The position numbers and the translations under genes were made by a program. The notes below the pieces were generated by a model, which saw only the letters and a list, made by a program, of their open reading frames with translations, was not told the origin of the DNA and ran no database searches. Positions 22,997 to 35,962 of a DNA stretch of 36,079 bases are shown in pieces. The stretch is from a virus (Duplodnaviria; Heunggongvirae; Uroviricota; Caudoviricetes), in IMG/VR virus record IMGVR_UViG_2690316109_000010; one strand, given 5' to 3'. Every line of letters begins with the position of its first letter. Within the stretch, counting starts at the first letter, position 1.

Positions 22997-23392
22997 CTAA
23001 CCTCGCATGTCAAAGCCAGATTTCTGAAAATCTCTGTAGACTTCCGGATTGTTGAAGGCCGGAAATTTGGCTTTATGAGCTGCGGACTTTATCGCTTCGC
23101 AATAGGCTTTATCACCGTTACTGGTAGATATTTTTAACGCCGTGCCATCCTGAGAGAATTCCATATGCAACCTGCATTTTTTCCCTTTCCAGTTATGCGG
23201 CTCATCAAGTTTGGCATTAATTGCAGCTCTGATTCCCCGCGCTTGCGCCCCCCATTCATCCTGATCATCCCAGCGTCCTGAACTGCAACTACCTGTAGCA
23301 GTAGTTTTGTGGCAATCTGAAGGGTGTAAAGGTGTGCATCCCGCAACAAAACCGACCCAAAAAGTCAACATAACGATTTTCTTTAATCCCAC
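22997..23392 (-). CDS. Lipoprotein with TolA domain III-like C-terminus (copy 1)
   Basis: 131 aa from the GTG at 23392 (GAGGAG 6 nt upstream); signal peptide MGLKKIVMLTFWVGFVAGC with lipobox; C-terminus KKCRLHMEFSQDGTALKIS...GDKAYCEAIKSAAHKAKFPAFNNPEVYRDFQKSGFDMRG. Confidence 0.7.
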   Translation of the reverse strand: MGLKKIVMLTFWVGFVAGCTPLHPSDCHKTTATGSCSSGRWDDQDEWGAQARGIRAAINAKLDEPHNWKGKKCRLHMEFSQDGTALKISTSNGDKAYCEAIKSAAHKAKFPAFNNPEVYRDFQKSGFDMRG

Positions 23393-23971: not shown

Positions 23972-24337
23972 TTTTCCTCACATATGTCATATAGTAAAGG
24001 ATTATATATACCGTTGTTTTGGACGCTCAAACAGCGAATCAGATCAAATAAAACGCACATTTGTTAACATTTACACAAAGTCTGCGTGGGATATTCTGAA
24101 AGAATATCCATAATGTGGAGAGAATCTATTGAAGTGCATGGTGCCGGGGGCCTCCCGGTGAATTCAGTACCAGCACCTGAATCCACGATTATCCCATATA
24201 CCTACTCGCTGATTGCCCCTCCGCACAGGGGGATTCACCATGCCAGTTTCTTTTAACAAACTCCCCGCAAACCAGAGAACAGTCAACCGCCTGAATTGTG
24301 AAGTATTTAAAAATTTCTCCCGCTAACTGATACCCGG

Positions 24338-26168: not shown

Positions 26169-26245
26169 TGGCGCGCTGTACTGGATTCGAACCAGTGACC
26201 GATTGCTTAGAAGGCAATTGCTCTGTCCGGCTGAGCTAACAACGC
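26169..26245 (-). tRNA. tRNA-Arg (anticodon UCU)
   Basis: The reverse complement folds as a cloverleaf: acceptor GCGTTGT/ACAGCGC, D arm GCTC...GAGC, anticodon stem ATTGC/GCAAT with loop CTTCTAA, T arm ACTGG-TTCGAAT-CCAGT, 3' CCA. Confidence 0.85.
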
Positions 26246-26349: not shown

Positions 26350-26425
26350 TGGTGGCCCTTGCTGGATTTGAACCAGCGACCTGGCGATTATGAGTCGCTC
26401 GCTCTCACCACTGAGCTAAAGGACC
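26350..26425 (-). tRNA. tRNA with CAU anticodon (ileX/ileZ-like tRNA-Ile2, or Met)
   Basis: The reverse complement GGTCCTTTAGCTCAGTGGTGAGAGC...CTCATAA...GCTGGTTCAAATCCAGCAAGGGCCACCA folds as a cloverleaf with anticodon loop CTCATAA; closely resembles E. coli ileX as I recall it. Confidence 0.8.
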
Positions 26426-29169: not shown

Positions 29170-29421
29170 TTATTCTTCTGCAAAAGCTGAAAAGCCTGCT
29201 TTTATTCCAATCTCTTTCAGTGCCTGTAATGAAGTGACAAACTCACCTTCGCGCAAGATAAATCCGTCTGTCACTCGACCATCCACAAAATTAATTAACG
29301 CAGCCCCATTCTTTCGCAAACACATGATGCGGTAATGACTAACAAGATTTCCATTTTCAACGCACACAGCATAGAGGCCATCTTCACAAAAAATTTTACG
29401 CAGTTCTTCGATGTTCATCAT
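29170..29421 (-). CDS. Rem-like small prophage protein
   Basis: 83 aa, MMNIEELRKIFCEDGLYAVCVENGNL...; same length and position (next to hok) as Qin Rem as I recall it. Confidence 0.45.
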   Translation of the reverse strand: MMNIEELRKIFCEDGLYAVCVENGNLVSHYRIMCLRKNGAALINFVDGRVTDGFILREGEFVTSLQALKEIGIKAGFSAFAEE

Positions 29422-29636: not shown

Positions 29637-29792
29637 TTACTCCTCAGGTTCGTAAGCTGTGAAGACAGCGACCTCCGTCTGGCCGGTTCGGATTCGTACC
29701 TCGCAGAGGTCTTTCCTCGTTACCAGTGCCGTCACTATGACGGTTAAACAGATGACGATCAGGGCGATTAACATCGCCTTTTGCTGCTTCAT
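29637..29792 (-). CDS. hok: Hok-family type I toxin (HokD/RelF-like)
   Basis: 51 aa, MKQQKAMLIALIVICLTVIVTALVTRKDLCEVRIRTGQTEVAVFTAYEPEE, a Hok-family membrane toxin; ATG at 29792 after AGGAG; the frame is open upstream to 29849 (mok-like leader). Confidence 0.85.
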   Translation of the reverse strand: MKQQKAMLIALIVICLTVIVTALVTRKDLCEVRIRTGQTEVAVFTAYEPEE

Positions 29793-30354
29793 AGCCTGCT
29801 TCTCCTTGCCTTTCGGCACGTAAGAGGCTAACCTACATGTGTCTAGCATGAAATTGGCCTCAGGTTAATGTTAAGCGTCTTGCCGGACGCGTAATGTTAA
29901 CTGGGGCTTTTCTCTATCTGCCTTTGGTGTTCATGCCTGAGGCAGATAGCCTCAAGCACCCGCAGCAATTCTACTTAACTCACGTCACCTCGCCAATATA
30001 AAATCAATCAGAAAGGCGATCCGTAAGAACAACAGCAAGGCAATAAATTGCCATTACAGCCGCAATAGCTAGCGCACATTTGAGAACCAGCACGACAACC
30101 TCCTGTATTGGACGTACACCAGTCCTGATGAATATGAGGCTGTCTCGTCAGTGATTCAATACAACTATTGGGTATAGTTTCTCTGATTTTTTCTGTGGAA
30201 ATGGGGCTCAACCACTAGTCACCACCAGCACTTCTTTTAATACGCAAAGTCCGACACAAGCTAACCTTCTAGTCCGCTTTGAGCGAGGAGCGGAAGTTTA
30301 TAGACATTTCTTGCACTGCATTGTCTAATCAATTAGGAGCTGGTAACGTGCCCT

Positions 30355-30420: not shown

Positions 30421-32214
30421 CTATCTGAAACGCTCAAACAGTGCAACCATTCCTTCAGGAGCGATATCTCTGACCTGGGCTCCTTGCCGCTCAACCCACT
30501 TACCAGCTATATGTGAAGGGGTATCCTGACCTAAAATTTCGAAGACGAAAACCGTCTTATCGAAGTATCGAACGCATTTAAGATGAGTGTTTATGTAGGA
30601 CTTAAGCGGTTCTGAAAGTCCTGAGCGTCCTACCCGATCAGAGATGTCTTGGAACATCTGGTCAAGGTTCTTTCCAGCGTGGTTCGCTTCGTGATCAACA
30701 CCAGTTATATGGAAGCCGTTATAAGATAAAGCCTTGCTTCCGAAAATCTCCTGAACTCTTGTTGCAGTATGCGCATTTTCAGCAACCCCTACAAGAACAT
30801 AGCCCTTGTGTCCTCTGCCGATATTAGCAATAGCAGCGCAGGTCTCCATAATTTTTTCGAAGGAGCGTTCATCAAAGGAAGGTGATGGGTCTAAAGTATA
30901 GAAACCTTGTTTAAAATCGTAGGCCGCCTGCTCAGTTATTGAGTTAGTGAGTAAATTTTGGAGCTTCGTGATCCAATGAACTTTTGCAGGATCTGGATTT
31001 TGATCGTTTTCAAAAAAGCCCTGAATCCAACCAATTATTGAATCGACCATTCTACTCCGGTTGTCAGCCCCCCATCTCCCTCCATCTTGAACCTGAATAT
31101 TCCTACCGCAATCTTTCAGCCGCCCAATGAGGCCCGCACTATCTGAAACCACCATACCCCTTTTAATTATCAGGTCATGCATGGCGAGAAAGACCACCTG
31201 AAAGTAACGGGGGACTGGATTACCACCATTTCCGTTAGGAAAAATCAAACCAGAGAATGTCGTTTGAGCCTGACTAAGAAGTAGGATTATCGCATCATGT
31301 ACTCTTTGATAATCAAGATCGACTAGCTCCCCGGTTCTCTTTTTAATAGCTTGATCAATCGCTTCGAATCTTGCTTTGCTGGCTAAAGCTTCCGGGGATA
31401 TTGCTCCATAGTAGTCATCTAGAAGCTCTGTACGCGAGGCCAGAGGTTTGTCAGAAACCATATAAGCAAGAATGTCCGCCACTATCTCTTCATCCCGGCT
31501 CTGTCTTAACTGCTCCTTCGTCAATATTCCGTTAACAATCCAGAAGACGCTATCGGCACTAATGCCGTAGTCTAAATCCTTGTTCGTGATGCTAATTTTT
31601 TTCATCTCGCTTAAGAGCAAGAGATCCGCGTTAGATGTGTCACCACGAACTCTTGCGGAGATCTTCCGAACACATTCCGCAAACACATTTGTAGCACCTG
31701 CTGCACGCAACTCCTGTCGTGAGAGCTGACGTCCACCTGAGTTAATTCGCCTGAACACTTCCTCAACTGAGTCTCTCTCGGCTGCTTCATAAATTGAAAG
31801 CGGGACAGGATATGATGCTATTGCAAGACACTGGCTTCGATCAAGGAGTGGCATCTTCTGATCAATGACTCCGCGATCTAATAGGTCTTTCGTCGTCGCG
31901 AACGTATTTAAATCAAAGTAGAATCCATTAAATGAAAAATCGTTCGAGATAAAAGACATGATGGCATTCATACGCTGCATCCCATCAATAATCTCGAGAG
32001 TGCCGTCTTTTCTCCCAAGAGGTTCTGCTAACAAAATGATAGGTATCGGGAATCCCTTGATTATCGAGTCAATAAAATTTTGTTTTTCCTCAATAGTCCA
32101 AATCAATTTACGTTGATACTGTCGATTCACAACGTATTTTTTATCCTGATAGTTGATAAACACTCGCTCAACTTGTTCGCCACGAACTATTAGTTCTTGT
32201 TGTAACGTTGCCAT
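30421..32214 (-). CDS. DUF262 (ParB-like nuclease/NTPase domain) protein, putative anti-phage defense or Type IV restriction-like enzyme
   Basis: About 597 aa from the ATG at 32214 (AGGACGG Shine-Dalgarno); N-terminal YVVNRQYQRKLIWTIEEKQNFIDSIIKGFPIPIILLA...IIDGMQRMNAI is the DUF262 signature (DGxQR); C-terminal half unassigned (possible DHEANH His-rich motif). AT-rich gene with its own AT-rich upstream region and terminator. Confidence 0.7.
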   Translation of the reverse strand: MATLQQELIVRGEQVERVFINYQDKKYVVNRQYQRKLIWTIEEKQNFIDSIIKGFPIPIILLAEPLGRKDGTLEIIDGMQRMNAIMSFISNDFSFNGFYFDLNTFATTKDLLDRGVIDQKMPLLDRSQCLAIASYPVPLSIYEAAERDSVEEVFRRINSGGRQLSRQELRAAGATNVFAECVRKISARVRGDTSNADLLLLSEMKKISITNKDLDYGISADSVFWIVNGILTKEQLRQSRDEEIVADILAYMVSDKPLASRTELLDDYYGAISPEALASKARFEAIDQAIKKRTGELVDLDYQRVHDAIILLLSQAQTTFSGLIFPNGNGGNPVPRYFQVVFLAMHDLIIKRGMVVSDSAGLIGRLKDCGRNIQVQDGGRWGADNRSRMVDSIIGWIQGFFENDQNPDPAKVHWITKLQNLLTNSITEQAAYDFKQGFYTLDPSPSFDERSFEKIMETCAAIANIGRGHKGYVLVGVAENAHTATRVQEIFGSKALSYNGFHITGVDHEANHAGKNLDQMFQDISDRVGRSGLSEPLKSYINTHLKCVRYFDKTVFVFEILGQDTPSHIAGKWVERQGAQVRDIAPEGMVALFERFR

Positions 32215-32650
32215 TATGTTGCCGTCCTGAGCCATTTATAGAGATATAACGATTAGGCAAAACCTGCCCTACATCACACGTACGTATCATAATAATTGAA
32301 AAGTCATAAAAATAAATATTCTTCTACAGCATCGCCCGGCATACTTCAAATGCACAAAAATAAAACACTATAAATCAATATCTTATGGAATTATTTTTGT
32401 AAAGGTGAATTGAACTTGTTACTCACTAAATTCTCCTGAATTTATGTTTTTTTTGCTAATGGACAATAATGTTGAACTGTAGATATTTGTTTTAATTGGA
32501 ATTAATTTTCGGAAAATGCTCGTATCTATGACAGCTTTTGGCACAAAGCGGACAACCACGCCAGATCTACCCTGTGCCATGAAAAATGAGAATGTCAATT
32601 CACTCTTGAACTAATGCTTTTTAATCTAGTAACGTCTAAAATACCTAACA

Positions 32651-34058: not shown

Positions 34059-34560
34059 AATTCCATCCAGCTTTTTGTTGGTATTGCTGTCGATACGCAA
34101 GTTTGAAAGCAATTGCTTTTTCTATAAGTTCGTCAGTTTCACGATCCACTACGGCAGGATCAGCAAAAAGCAGTCCGGACTCCACCACATCGCCATATTC
34201 TTTGTTTAACCCGGCGATCATGTACGTGATGCTTTTTCCGTCACTAATTTCACGATACAACCTGAAATCACTAATCCGGATAGCCTCCATAATCGCAGGC
34301 ACTAGCGCCGTGAACTTTTCACGCTTATCCCTGGTGTCGATAGCCTTCCAGCGTTCGAATATCTTCACTCGATTAACACCAAGCGCTCGCTGATCAACCG
34401 CGCCACCTTCATCTGTGACACGCTGAACATCGATGTTCGGGCGCTCTTTCAAAGCCCAGAATGCTTCAGTGATTAATATCGTCGCCTGCTCCTGTGTCAT
34501 TCCTGGTCGACATATCCAGGCATCCAGAGCCTCACGAGCCTGTTCAGGAGTGATTTTCAT
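34039..34560 (-). CDS. Hypothetical cro-proximal protein (YdaT-like position)
   Basis: 173-aa ORF with ATG start at 34560, immediately downstream of the Cro-like gene; identity uncertain. Confidence 0.3.
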   Translation of the reverse strand: MKITPEQAREALDAWICRPGMTQEQATILITEAFWALKERPNIDVQRVTDEGGAVDQRALGVNRVKIFERWKAIDTRDKREKFTALVPAIMEAIRISDFRLYREISDGKSITYMIAGLNKEYGDVVESGLLFADPAVVDRETDELIEKAIAFKLAYRQQYQQKAGWNYEPSFC

Positions 34561-34771
34561 TGTTCAACCGCCCCGCCCGCTTCGTCTTACGATATTCATC
34601 ATAAACTTTGGGATCATACTGAAGCTCCCCGCCAGATGCCTCCTGTAGACGCATCGCGCGACCTTCAGGAACCAGTATCCCCCAAGCAGCAACACTTGCC
34701 AGCCTCACTCCTGCGGCATTGGCAAGCTTTGTTTTGCTGCCAAAAAAAGTAATTGCGTCAACTTTAAGCAT
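34544..34771 (-). CDS. Cro/DicC-like small HTH regulator
   Basis: 75 aa from the ATG at 34771 (MLKVDAITFFGSKTKLANAAGVRLASVAAWG...) after AGAGGGGG; divergent from the repressor. The track start at 34804 would place the operator palindrome inside the coding sequence. Confidence 0.7.
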   Translation of the reverse strand: MLKVDAITFFGSKTKLANAAGVRLASVAAWGILVPEGRAMRLQEASGGELQYDPKVYDEYRKTKRAGRLNNENHS

Positions 34772-34785
34772 CAAAGCCCCCCTCT

Positions 34786-34803
34786 TGTTAGACTTTTCTA
34801 ACA
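34786..34803. promoter_or_regulatory. Palindromic operator 1 (TGTTAGA-N4-TCTAACA)
   Basis: Perfect 7-bp half-sites TGTTAGA and TCTAACA around CTTT, in the divergent intergenic region between the repressor and Cro-like genes. Confidence 0.6.
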
Positions 34804-34852
34804 TTATTGTGCGCGGGATACCTAAGTCAAGAAAAATTAGAATTACCTAACT

Positions 34853-35260
34853 ATGGATACAAGAACCCTGGGCCAGCGAGTTCTGGCGCGACGAAAAGAA
34901 TTACGCTTAACACAACGAGAAGCCGCGCGCCTCGCTGGAGTTGCTCACGTCACAATTTCACAATGGGAAAGAGACGAAACCCAGCCAGTCGGAAAACGAT
35001 TGTTTGCTTTAGCGGATGCTCTGAAGTGCTCACCTACATGGCTAATGTTTGGTGACGAAGACAAGGCACCAGTGCCTGCACAAGAACTTCATGTGGAAAC
35101 AGAGCTAACTCCCAACCACAAAGAATTGATCGAATTATTCGATGCTCTTCCATCTTCCGAGCAGGAAGCCTTGCTGTCTGAAATGCGCGCAAGAGTAGAA
35201 AACTTCAACAAACTCTTCGAAGAAATGCTTAAAGCGCGTAAAAATAAATCAATAAAATAA
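34853..35260 (+). CDS. DicA-like HTH_XRE repressor (immunity repressor)
   Basis: 135 aa; helix-turn-helix LTQREAARLAGVAHVTISQWERDETQP and C-terminus ...MRARVENFNKLFEEMLKARKNKSIK resemble E. coli DicA as I recall it; ATG at 34853. Confidence 0.8.
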   Translation: MDTRTLGQRVLARRKELRLTQREAARLAGVAHVTISQWERDETQPVGKRLFALADALKCSPTWLMFGDEDKAPVPAQELHVETELTPNHKELIELFDALPSSEQEALLSEMRARVENFNKLFEEMLKARKNKSIK

Positions 35261-35296
35261 CATTCTTTTCAAGTGATTAGTTGCGCCCACCCTTTT

Positions 35297-35314
35297 TGTT
35301 AGATCAATCTAACA
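35297..35314. promoter_or_regulatory. Palindromic operator 2 (TGTTAGA-N4-TCTAACA)
   Basis: Same half-sites as operator 1 around TCAA, about 35 bp downstream of the repressor stop; a degenerate third copy (TGTTAGG-TTAT-TCTAAAT) lies at 35333-35349. Confidence 0.55.
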
Positions 35315-35428
35315 AAAAACACTTGCCTCTCATGTTAGGTTATTCTAAATTATTTTCCATCAAGACACCGCACGGTGTTCTCAGCAAACAGTTCCGCTAC
35401 CCCGGCGTTAAGGGGAAATGAGGTCAGC

Positions 35429-35584
35429 ATGGATACTATCGATCTTGGCAACAGCGAATCTCTGGTATGTGGCGTGTTCCCCAACCAGGACGGTACGTTC
35501 ACCGCGATGACGTATACCAAAAGCAAAACGTTTAAAACCGAAAATGGTGCCCGTCGCTGGCTGGAAAGAAACCCAGGTGAGTGA
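35429..35584 (+). CDS. YdfA-like small protein
   Basis: 51 aa from the ATG at 35429 (MDTIDLGNSESLVCGVFPNQDGTFTAMTYTKSKTFKTENGARRWLERNPGE) after GAGG; the track start at 35375 is a GTG. Confidence 0.55.
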   Translation: MDTIDLGNSESLVCGVFPNQDGTFTAMTYTKSKTFKTENGARRWLERNPGE

Positions 35585-35585
35585 T

Positions 35586-35714
35586 ATGGATTTCGACACA
35601 ATCATGGAAAAGGCTTACGAAGAATACTTCGAAGGTCTTGCCGACTGCGAAGAAGCTCTCAGCTTCAACGAATTTAAACAGGCGCTTTCCAGTTCGGCAA
35701 AATCTAACGGCTGA
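35586..35714 (+). CDS. YdfB-like small protein (42 aa)
   Basis: ATG at 35586 gives MDFDTIMEKAYEEYFEGLADCEEALSFNEFKQALSSSAKSNG; below the 60-aa cutoff of the ORF track. Confidence 0.5.
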   Translation: MDFDTIMEKAYEEYFEGLADCEEALSFNEFKQALSSSAKSNG

Positions 35715-35743: not shown

Positions 35744-35962
35744 ATGCAGAAACGAGAACCCGTCATCATCGCGCCAGACTATACCGATGATGAACTTTAT
35801 GAGTGGATGCGCCAGAAAATTAATGCAGCGCAGGATTTGAAATGGGCCAATGAAACCAGGGCTAAGCAGGCTGAAAATCTGTCCGCTCTGGAGCAGGATA
35901 TCACCAATCTGGAAAAAGCAGCGGCATTAAGCATTGCCAGAATGATTACATACCCGCGTTAG
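35744..35962 (+). CDS. YdfC-like small protein
   Basis: 72 aa, MQKREPVIIAPDYTDDELYEWMRQKINAAQDLKWANETRAKQAENLSALEQ...; ATG after GAGGAA. Confidence 0.55.
   Translation: MQKREPVIIAPDYTDDELYEWMRQKINAAQDLKWANETRAKQAENLSALEQDITNLEKAAALSIARMITYPR

Follow-up and report, generated by a model that had tools for sequence, protein, structure and literature searches.

The closest described relative of the locus analysed here is the immunity switch of the well-studied Qin prophage of E. coli K-12, the operator layout of which was described in 1986-88 (Bejar et al. 1986/1988, as cited in Yun et al. 2012, PMC3441716, and Ragunathan et al. 2023, PMC10448788) and in which DicA and DicC form a bistable switch (PMC10448788). 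Three operators, Oc, Om and Oa, occupy the K-12 intergenic region (PMC3441716). Oc is the one operator at which binding of DicA in vivo has been shown, and one A-to-C substitution is enough to abolish it (PMC3441716). The start of the dicC promoter was mapped by 5'RACE and its -10 is overlapped by Oc, where DicA represses dicC and stimulates dicA (PMC3441716). Om and Oa were predicted from sequence and showed no DicA binding in vivo when tested alone (PMC3441716), and the dicA promoter of K-12 is unmapped (PMC3441716, PMC7567609). DicA also represses dicBp, the promoter upstream of ydfA (PMC10448788); operators have been predicted there but are unmapped, and Reg-Seq lists no binding location (PMC7567609). 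K-12 DicA has no cleavage site and is inactivated by the Rem antirepressor (PMC10448788). For the mode of DNA recognition the reference is the P22 repressor, the nearest homologue of known structure, which on its 18-bp sites contacts positions 2-7 and 12-17, not 8-11, and prefers A/T-rich centres (PMC4267663).

Comparison with a related genome identifies the window, by which we mean the whole stretch of 36,079 nucleotides analysed here, as a near-complete lambdoid prophage at the Qin site, next to rspB, with tail, head and lysis genes, Q, rem, hokD, a DUF262 gene and a replication-like module. Segment 34500-35500 was found, over at least 80% of the query, in 565 of 5,426 complete E. coli genomes. 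Its repressor gene (34853-35260, + strand; WP_000381212.1) encodes a 135-residue protein that is 57% identical to K-12 DicA and scores 224.7 bits with the NCBIfam DicA model NF007257, well above its cut-off (101), over 134 of 135 profile positions. The Pfam matches of this protein, HTH_3 among them, are to helix-turn-helix families only, and no S24 peptidase domain (LexA-like autocleavage/oligomerisation) was found in it. On the opposite strand, 81 bp away, a dicC-like gene (34544-34771, - strand) encodes a Cro analogue of 75 residues (Pfam P22_Cro, E 5e-12) that passes the NCBIfam DicC model NF007282 (165.8 bits, cut-off 130). This protein is 86% identical to K-12 DicC, and the differences all fall within the first 34 alignment columns, the helix-turn-helix region, where 23 columns match. 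Downstream of the repressor gene lie the first genes of the operon predicted to be repressed: ydfA (35429-35584, + strand; Pfam DUF1391) and, by RefSeq annotation of an identical segment, ydfB (35586-35714, + strand) and ydfC (35744-35962, + strand). RefSeq annotation of the genomes that share this segment places dicB, ydfD, an exonuclease gene, xis and int after ydfABC; the positions of dicF and dicB are beyond the end of the window. The rem gene (29173-29421, - strand) was located by tblastn, with 96% identity to K-12 Rem over all 83 residues.

Several other elements of the prophage were recorded alongside the switch. A protein of 604 residues, encoded at 30421-32235 (- strand) between hokD/sok and the replication-like module, has a GmrSD_N (DUF262) domain and is likely the product of an anti-phage defence gene; prophages with the same immunity region carry other genes at this position, for example a methyltransferase pseudogene in one of them. 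Rfam matches at gathering thresholds, all on the - strand, comprise the sok antitoxin RNA beside hokD (29787-29961), the STnc100 sRNA (24082-24272) and two tRNA genes (26172-26245 and 26353-26425). Both tRNA genes are downstream of the Q antiterminator gene, likewise on the minus strand, and are annotated as Arg and Ile in the related genome.

A search of the window returned two inverted repeats with common half-sites that flank the DicA-like gene, TGTTAGA-CTTT-TCTAACA at 34786-34803 (site 1, or O1) and TGTTAGA-TCAA-TCTAACA at 35297-35314 (site 2), which confirms the coordinates given in a preliminary description of this DNA. That description called them perfect 18-bp palindromes, a term that fits the 7-bp arms, which are exact inverted repeats, and not the 4-bp centres, which lack self-complementarity. 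Judged from sequence, the repeats are very probably operators of a Qin-type (DicA/DicC) prophage immunity switch, and the DicA-like repressor of the prophage is almost certainly the protein that would bind them. Comparative evidence comes from 57 loci encoding DicA relatives, drawn from one genome per species, of which 30 non-redundant loci were analysed and stacked without gaps on the repressor ATG. The layout is fixed across these 30 loci from many genera, and comprises a main palindrome (-67/-68), a middle position (-43), a third site (-18) and an AAGTCAA motif.

Site 1 had been placed in the divergent repressor/Cro region, and the divergent gene is the one that passes the DicC model. O1 starts 67 bp before the dicA ATG, the position of the main palindrome in the stack and the same offset as K-12 Oc, with which it has the core TGTTAG..CTAACA in common (TTGTTAGTCATAACTAACAA in K-12); it is the predicted Oc homologue. 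The dicC-like promoter (34803-34830, - strand) consists of a -35 TTGACT (34830-34825), a 16-nt spacer and a -10 AATAAT (34808-34803). With 10 of 12 positions matched it was the sole sigma-70-like site reported by a scan of 34500-35600, and the AAGTCAA motif at the dicC -35 is kept across alleles. Base 34803 is common to the end of O1 and the -10, and K-12 Oc likewise overlaps the -10 of dicC. Because O1 overlaps the -10 and start of the dicC-like promoter, we propose that its occupancy would turn this promoter off and silence the Cro analogue.

The immunity operator set postulated in the preliminary description is supported by the DicA/DicC gene pair, the Oc position and the covariation described below, but two members predicted here had been missed. 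One is a degenerate remnant at the middle (Om) position, TGCGCGG-GATA-CCTAAGT (34810-34827), spaced 24 bp from O1 and 25 bp from the next site (25 and 25 bp in K-12). The other is a predicted Oa-like operator, AATTAGA-ATTA-CCTAACT (34835-34852), which abuts the dicA ATG and which repeat finding paired, as an 83% inverted repeat, with the third copy of the motif at 35333-35350. Set against the lambda-type tripartite operator, the upstream region has three positions 24-25 bp apart, of which the middle and third match at 7 and 10, respectively, of the 14 arm positions. As isolated Om and Oa fail to bind in K-12, cooperativity may be required at the weaker sites of the window, or DicC may be the protein that uses them. 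A candidate -10 for the dicA-like gene, TAGAAT (34838-34843, + strand), conforms to a TAnnnT pattern at -15 to -10 from the ATG that also occurs in K-12 and in most other stacked alleles, and no Shine-Dalgarno sequence was found before the dicA-like ATG in the stacked loci. This arrangement suggests that TAGAAT could act as the dicA -10, which would leave the mRNA almost without a leader (about 3 nt). A nearly leaderless repressor mRNA is likened to that of lambda cI transcribed from PRM.

Identity to K-12 Qin in 40-bp windows delimits a swapped immunity cassette at about 34680-35360, with values of 88-100% outside this block and 48-85% inside. Inside the diverged block are the codons of the DicC helix-turn-helix, every operator upstream of dicA, dicA itself and the downstream operators as far as the promoter -10. 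Its mosaic junctions are sharp, one falling in dicC after the helix-turn-helix codons and the other at the -10 of the left promoter. Holding both DNA-binding domains and every operator, the block is thus a classical exchangeable lambdoid immunity region.

The N-terminus of the DicA-like protein (residues 1-71) is homologous to the DNA-binding domain of P22 C2 (phmmer E 1.3e-18 for 1ADR and 3.6e-18 for 2R1J). The sites in the window have a 7-4-7 form with A/T-rich centres, and the two perfect sites have identical arms around different centres (CTTT and TCAA). A DicA-like dimer would accordingly be expected to contact the two 7-bp arms, TGTTAG(A), of each 18-bp site and not to read the A/T-rich centre base by base. 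Across loci, recognition-helix variants pair with particular arms: SQW with TTAG/TTAAG, SLW with TTGAG, and FKW with ATAAC/TTAAC. Cro and repressor proteins use common operators in lambdoid switches, and the diverged cassette includes the codons for the DicC helix-turn-helix, which therefore vary together with the sites, observations that would also suit sites recognised mainly or only by the DicC-like protein and not by the DicA-like repressor. DicC moreover affects expression of dicA and dicB in E. coli (PMC10448788). Exclusive use by DicC is nonetheless unlikely, given that binding at the homologous K-12 site depends on DicA (PMC3441716) and that the 7-4-7 geometry fits the P22 C2-type domain carried by DicA; more likely, the operators are used by both DicA and DicC.

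Site 2 is the core (35297-35314) of a predicted distal left-operator site (35293-35318) that repeat finding delineated as a 26-bp perfect palindrome with 12-bp arms and a 2-bp gap. Six genera and alleles show no variation in its GTTAG and CTAAC arm columns. The third copy, TGTTAGG-TTAT-TCTAAAT, described beforehand as degenerate, has mismatches in 3 of 14 arm positions and ends at 35350, not at 35349; it is the predicted proximal left-operator site (35333-35350). Between and within these sites lies a homologue of the K-12 dicB-operon promoter (35323-35351, + strand), with a -35 TTGCCT (35323-35328), a 17-nt spacer and a -10 TAAATT (35346-35351), which aligns with TTGACC-17-TAATCT of K-12. The hexamers are weak, matching at 8 of 12 positions, and fell below the threshold of the promoter scan, which hence did not report them. 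The 26-bp palindrome ends 4 bp, and its 18-bp core 8 bp, before the -35; the two downstream sites bracket this hexamer, and the proximal site fills the spacer and covers the -10. In other loci the proximal position is likewise occupied by an allele-matched site. Placement of the downstream copies to control the ydfABC unit, as proposed earlier, therefore finds support both in their position around the dicBp homologue and in the way such sites track their own upstream half-site across the 30 loci.

Transcription from the left promoter is predicted to start near 35358, where a CATCAA is conserved. For K-12, an RNase III cut has been reported at positions 813/814, with a longer DicF of 190 nt; the passage concerned is silent on the numbering, and if it counts from the 5' end of the transcript, the K-12 start would lie about 5 nt from the one predicted from the -10. 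A weak half-site, GATTAGT, was also seen within 35275-35292, 22 bp upstream of the perfect downstream site, and a left arm of the form GTTA[GT] recurs at this place in other alleles. It may correspond to the third left operator mentioned in the literature.

The 26-bp palindrome lies 33 nt after the stop codon of dicA and would fold as RNA with -9.6 kcal/mol (z -5.7), values that would also fit a hairpin ending or stabilising the dicA transcript. Its stem is A/U-rich, however, and its arms are the same 7-mers as those of the upstream site; the fold of its K-12 counterpart (-4.7 kcal/mol, z -1.4) is no more stable than those of shuffled sequences; and in other alleles the site at this position changes with the repressor allele. 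An intrinsic terminator in particular was rejected, as the element has no G+C-rich stem, is followed by no U-run (the next bases are ACACUUGC) and is absent from the list of the terminator scan. We consider a function as an RNA hairpin, in place of an operator, quite improbable.

The main palindromes of the 30 loci fall into 17 arm classes, among them TGTTAGA, TGTTAGT, CCTTAGG, TATTGAG, TCATAAC, ATTTAGG and ATTAAAG. Each locus tends to repeat its own arms at the other positions. Scored against the Oc arms of the same locus, the two best downstream sites gave a mismatch sum of 193 versus 272 +/- 10 after permutation, the Om position 163 versus 200 +/- 7, and the ATG-proximal Oa position 131 versus 167 +/- 6. 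None of 20,000 permutations reached the observed sum for the downstream, Om or Oa positions, in a test that does not fully remove relatedness among loci but draws on different genera and clearly different arms. The match to own arms also holds with one representative for each of the 17 classes.

At closer range the sites are conserved in E. ruysiae and E. albertii, with a phylogenetic footprint in which arms and promoter hexamers are kept and flanks and site centres vary. Between E. albertii and the window, 24 of 26 bases of the distal site are identical versus 21 of 32 in the preceding flank, and all 19 bases of 35333-35351 are identical versus 8 of the 14 bp before them. In E. albertii the centres differ (TATT and CCAA), and the arms show a single change, in the right half of O1 (CCTAACA). 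A perfect site is present on 120 viral contigs; on 33 of them a DicA homologue adjoins it, and 14 of these 33 repeat the pair at the same distance of 511 bp. Phased looping from one operator set to the other was considered and rejected: the spacing of 511 bp common to this prophage and K-12 becomes 497-518 bp in other alleles and gives no sign that a helical phase is conserved. A separate occurrence of the same half-site was noted in IMGVR_UViG_3300012020_000462, which has, at 2130-2230, three perfect tandem sites (ATGTTAGAGTAGTCTAACAA twice and ATGTTAGAGTAATCTAACAA) and one degenerate copy (TGTTAGACGATACTAACA), on a contig without a DicA homologue; this is probably the array of an unrelated repressor, or an iteron array, that has converged on the same arm.

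Covariation of this kind bears on whether some other factor, such as a host nucleoid protein or a YdaT-like protein, binds the repeats, or whether they are recombination scars at module boundaries. The repeats do lie near both ends of the mosaic block, and gel shifts with the K-12 dicA promoter fragment showed an extra, DicA-independent band (PMC3441716). Yet a half-site that changes together with the repressor allele, over 17 classes, is not what a host factor would show, and the sites lie inside the diverged block and not at its junctions, which makes either version very improbable by comparison with DicA-like operators.

The half-site TGTTAGA occurs four times in the 36 kb on both strands; all four copies are arms of sites 1 and 2, and the frequency as such, close to the 2.7 expected, is no over-representation. 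Perfect 7-N4-7 palindromes number 9, compared with 2.25 +/- 1.5 in 300 dinucleotide shuffles. The other seven are at 2332, 5872, 12009, 22854, 29552, 29610 and 32427; six of these are G+C-rich and resemble terminator stems, and the seven explain the excess of 9 over about 2. Further operator copies were sought throughout the window with up to 3 mismatches, and the sole extra match, at 23122, is within chance expectation. What excludes chance is the arrangement of the sites and not the frequency of the half-site: similarity arising by chance in A/T-rich intergenic DNA, for which only the near-expected half-site count speaks, has a negligible probability, since none of 300 dinucleotide-preserving shuffles contained two palindromes with a common half-site, arms covary with the repressor across loci, the pair recurs 511 bp apart in 14 viral contigs, and the sites are conserved in E. 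ruysiae and E. albertii.

Taken as operators of the DicA/DicC switch, the sites allow a mechanism to be proposed for the rest of the locus. The weaker Oa-like site, lying over the likely dicA -10 and start, would provide autorepression or repression by DicC. On the left side, occupancy of the distal and proximal sites would exclude RNA polymerase and so silence ydfABC-dicF-dicB and later genes. Induction would then proceed by relief through the Rem antirepressor or by the DicA/DicC bistable switch; the DicA-like protein has no autocleavage domain, which points to induction via an antirepressor and not via RecA. Rem is 96% identical to its K-12 counterpart although the repressor is just 57% identical, and identity between the DicA-like protein and K-12 DicA is 67% over residues 91-135 and 53% over residues 1-70. 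Rem may, to judge from these values, act on the more conserved C-terminal third of DicA.

The left operon begins with a leader of roughly 70 nt (35358-35428, + strand) that contains a predicted hairpin (35364-35379), the motif YTCAG, a GTTCCG (35391-35396) and a second predicted hairpin (35400-35415). This layout of two hairpins and two invariant motifs, YTCAG and GTTCYG, is kept in at least 17 loci, including other genera of Enterobacterales, with different first genes downstream, and the stems of the hairpins differ in sequence between loci. RNAalifold on MAFFT-aligned leaders recovered just 4 pairs, owing to register shifts in the alignment, and thus neither confirms nor excludes the hairpins. 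Rfam gave no match to the operators or leader, whether the whole window was searched at gathering thresholds or 35280-35480 at E values up to 10. A comparison with put RNA found no GTTCYG motif downstream of the left promoter in the HK022 immunity region, and no N-like Arg-rich ORFs were found after the leaders. The leader may be a cis-acting RNA for processive antitermination or another regulatory RNA. If so, transcription of the operon would continue past the dicF terminator into dicB, xis and int. The operators themselves are ordinary; it is conceivable, if rather doubtful, that their module holds something undescribed, either in this leader RNA or in the specificity series of its operator classes.

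The switch of a common E. coli prophage allele now has coordinates, a small addition to what was already known. The comparative data are of modest further value: they offer sequence-level support for operators at dicBp, which are listed as unlocated even in K-12, reveal that the weak Om and Oa positions track repressor specificity, despite their failure to bind alone in K-12, and define the exchangeable immunity cassette. Moreover, 17 or more operator classes, combined with small changes in the recognition helix, may constitute a natural specificity series for P22 C2-type domains.

Among known systems, the Gifsy repressors GfoR and GfhR resemble the DicA-like protein in being short, non-cleavable and inactivated by a small antirepressor (cited in PMC10448788). 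The Gifsy antirepressors are LexA-controlled, as cited in the same paper, whereas no LexA box was found near rem here and LexA-box matches across the window are at chance level. Lambda, with cI/Cro, OR1-3 and OL1-3, is similar in having divergent repressor and Cro genes around a three-position operator with 24-25 bp spacing, a second operator set on the leftward early promoter, a bistable switch and, possibly, a near-leaderless repressor mRNA. It differs in that the protein families are unrelated beyond the helix-turn-helix and in that the left operators of the window, which directly flank a small repressor gene, are separated from the right ones by just 0.5 kb. In the window, unlike lambda, the downstream pair of sites has a 36-bp spacing that encloses the -35, and no N gene follows the promoter. 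P22 C2 resembles the DicA-like protein in DNA recognition, with a homologous N-terminal domain and 18-bp rotationally symmetric sites made of arms and four central bases; some alleles of the DicA family even use P22-like arms, for example ATTAAAG..CTTAAAT. The C-terminal half of DicA is, in contrast, short, unrelated and without the S24 autocleavage domain. DicA is thus P22 C2-like at the DNA yet no full-length member of the P22 C2/lambda cI repressors.

The closest match is K-12 Qin itself. The two prophages share gene order, chromosomal site, a 135-residue repressor, promoter layout and a distance of 511 bp between the first and second sites, and from the leader onward the downstream operon is 88-100% identical; rem is 96% identical. 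The immunity allele differs, in the DicA and DicC sequences as given above and in the operators: the innermost arm base is A here and T in K-12, the centres are not the same, a perfect palindrome here stands where K-12 has an imperfect distal downstream site, and Om is more degenerate here. The prophage, moreover, is nearly complete here and a remnant in K-12. With a layout that matches well-studied K-12 Qin in this way, the locus represents a familiar genetic switch in ordinary form and adds one more allele to the long-known DicA/DicC/dicBp system.
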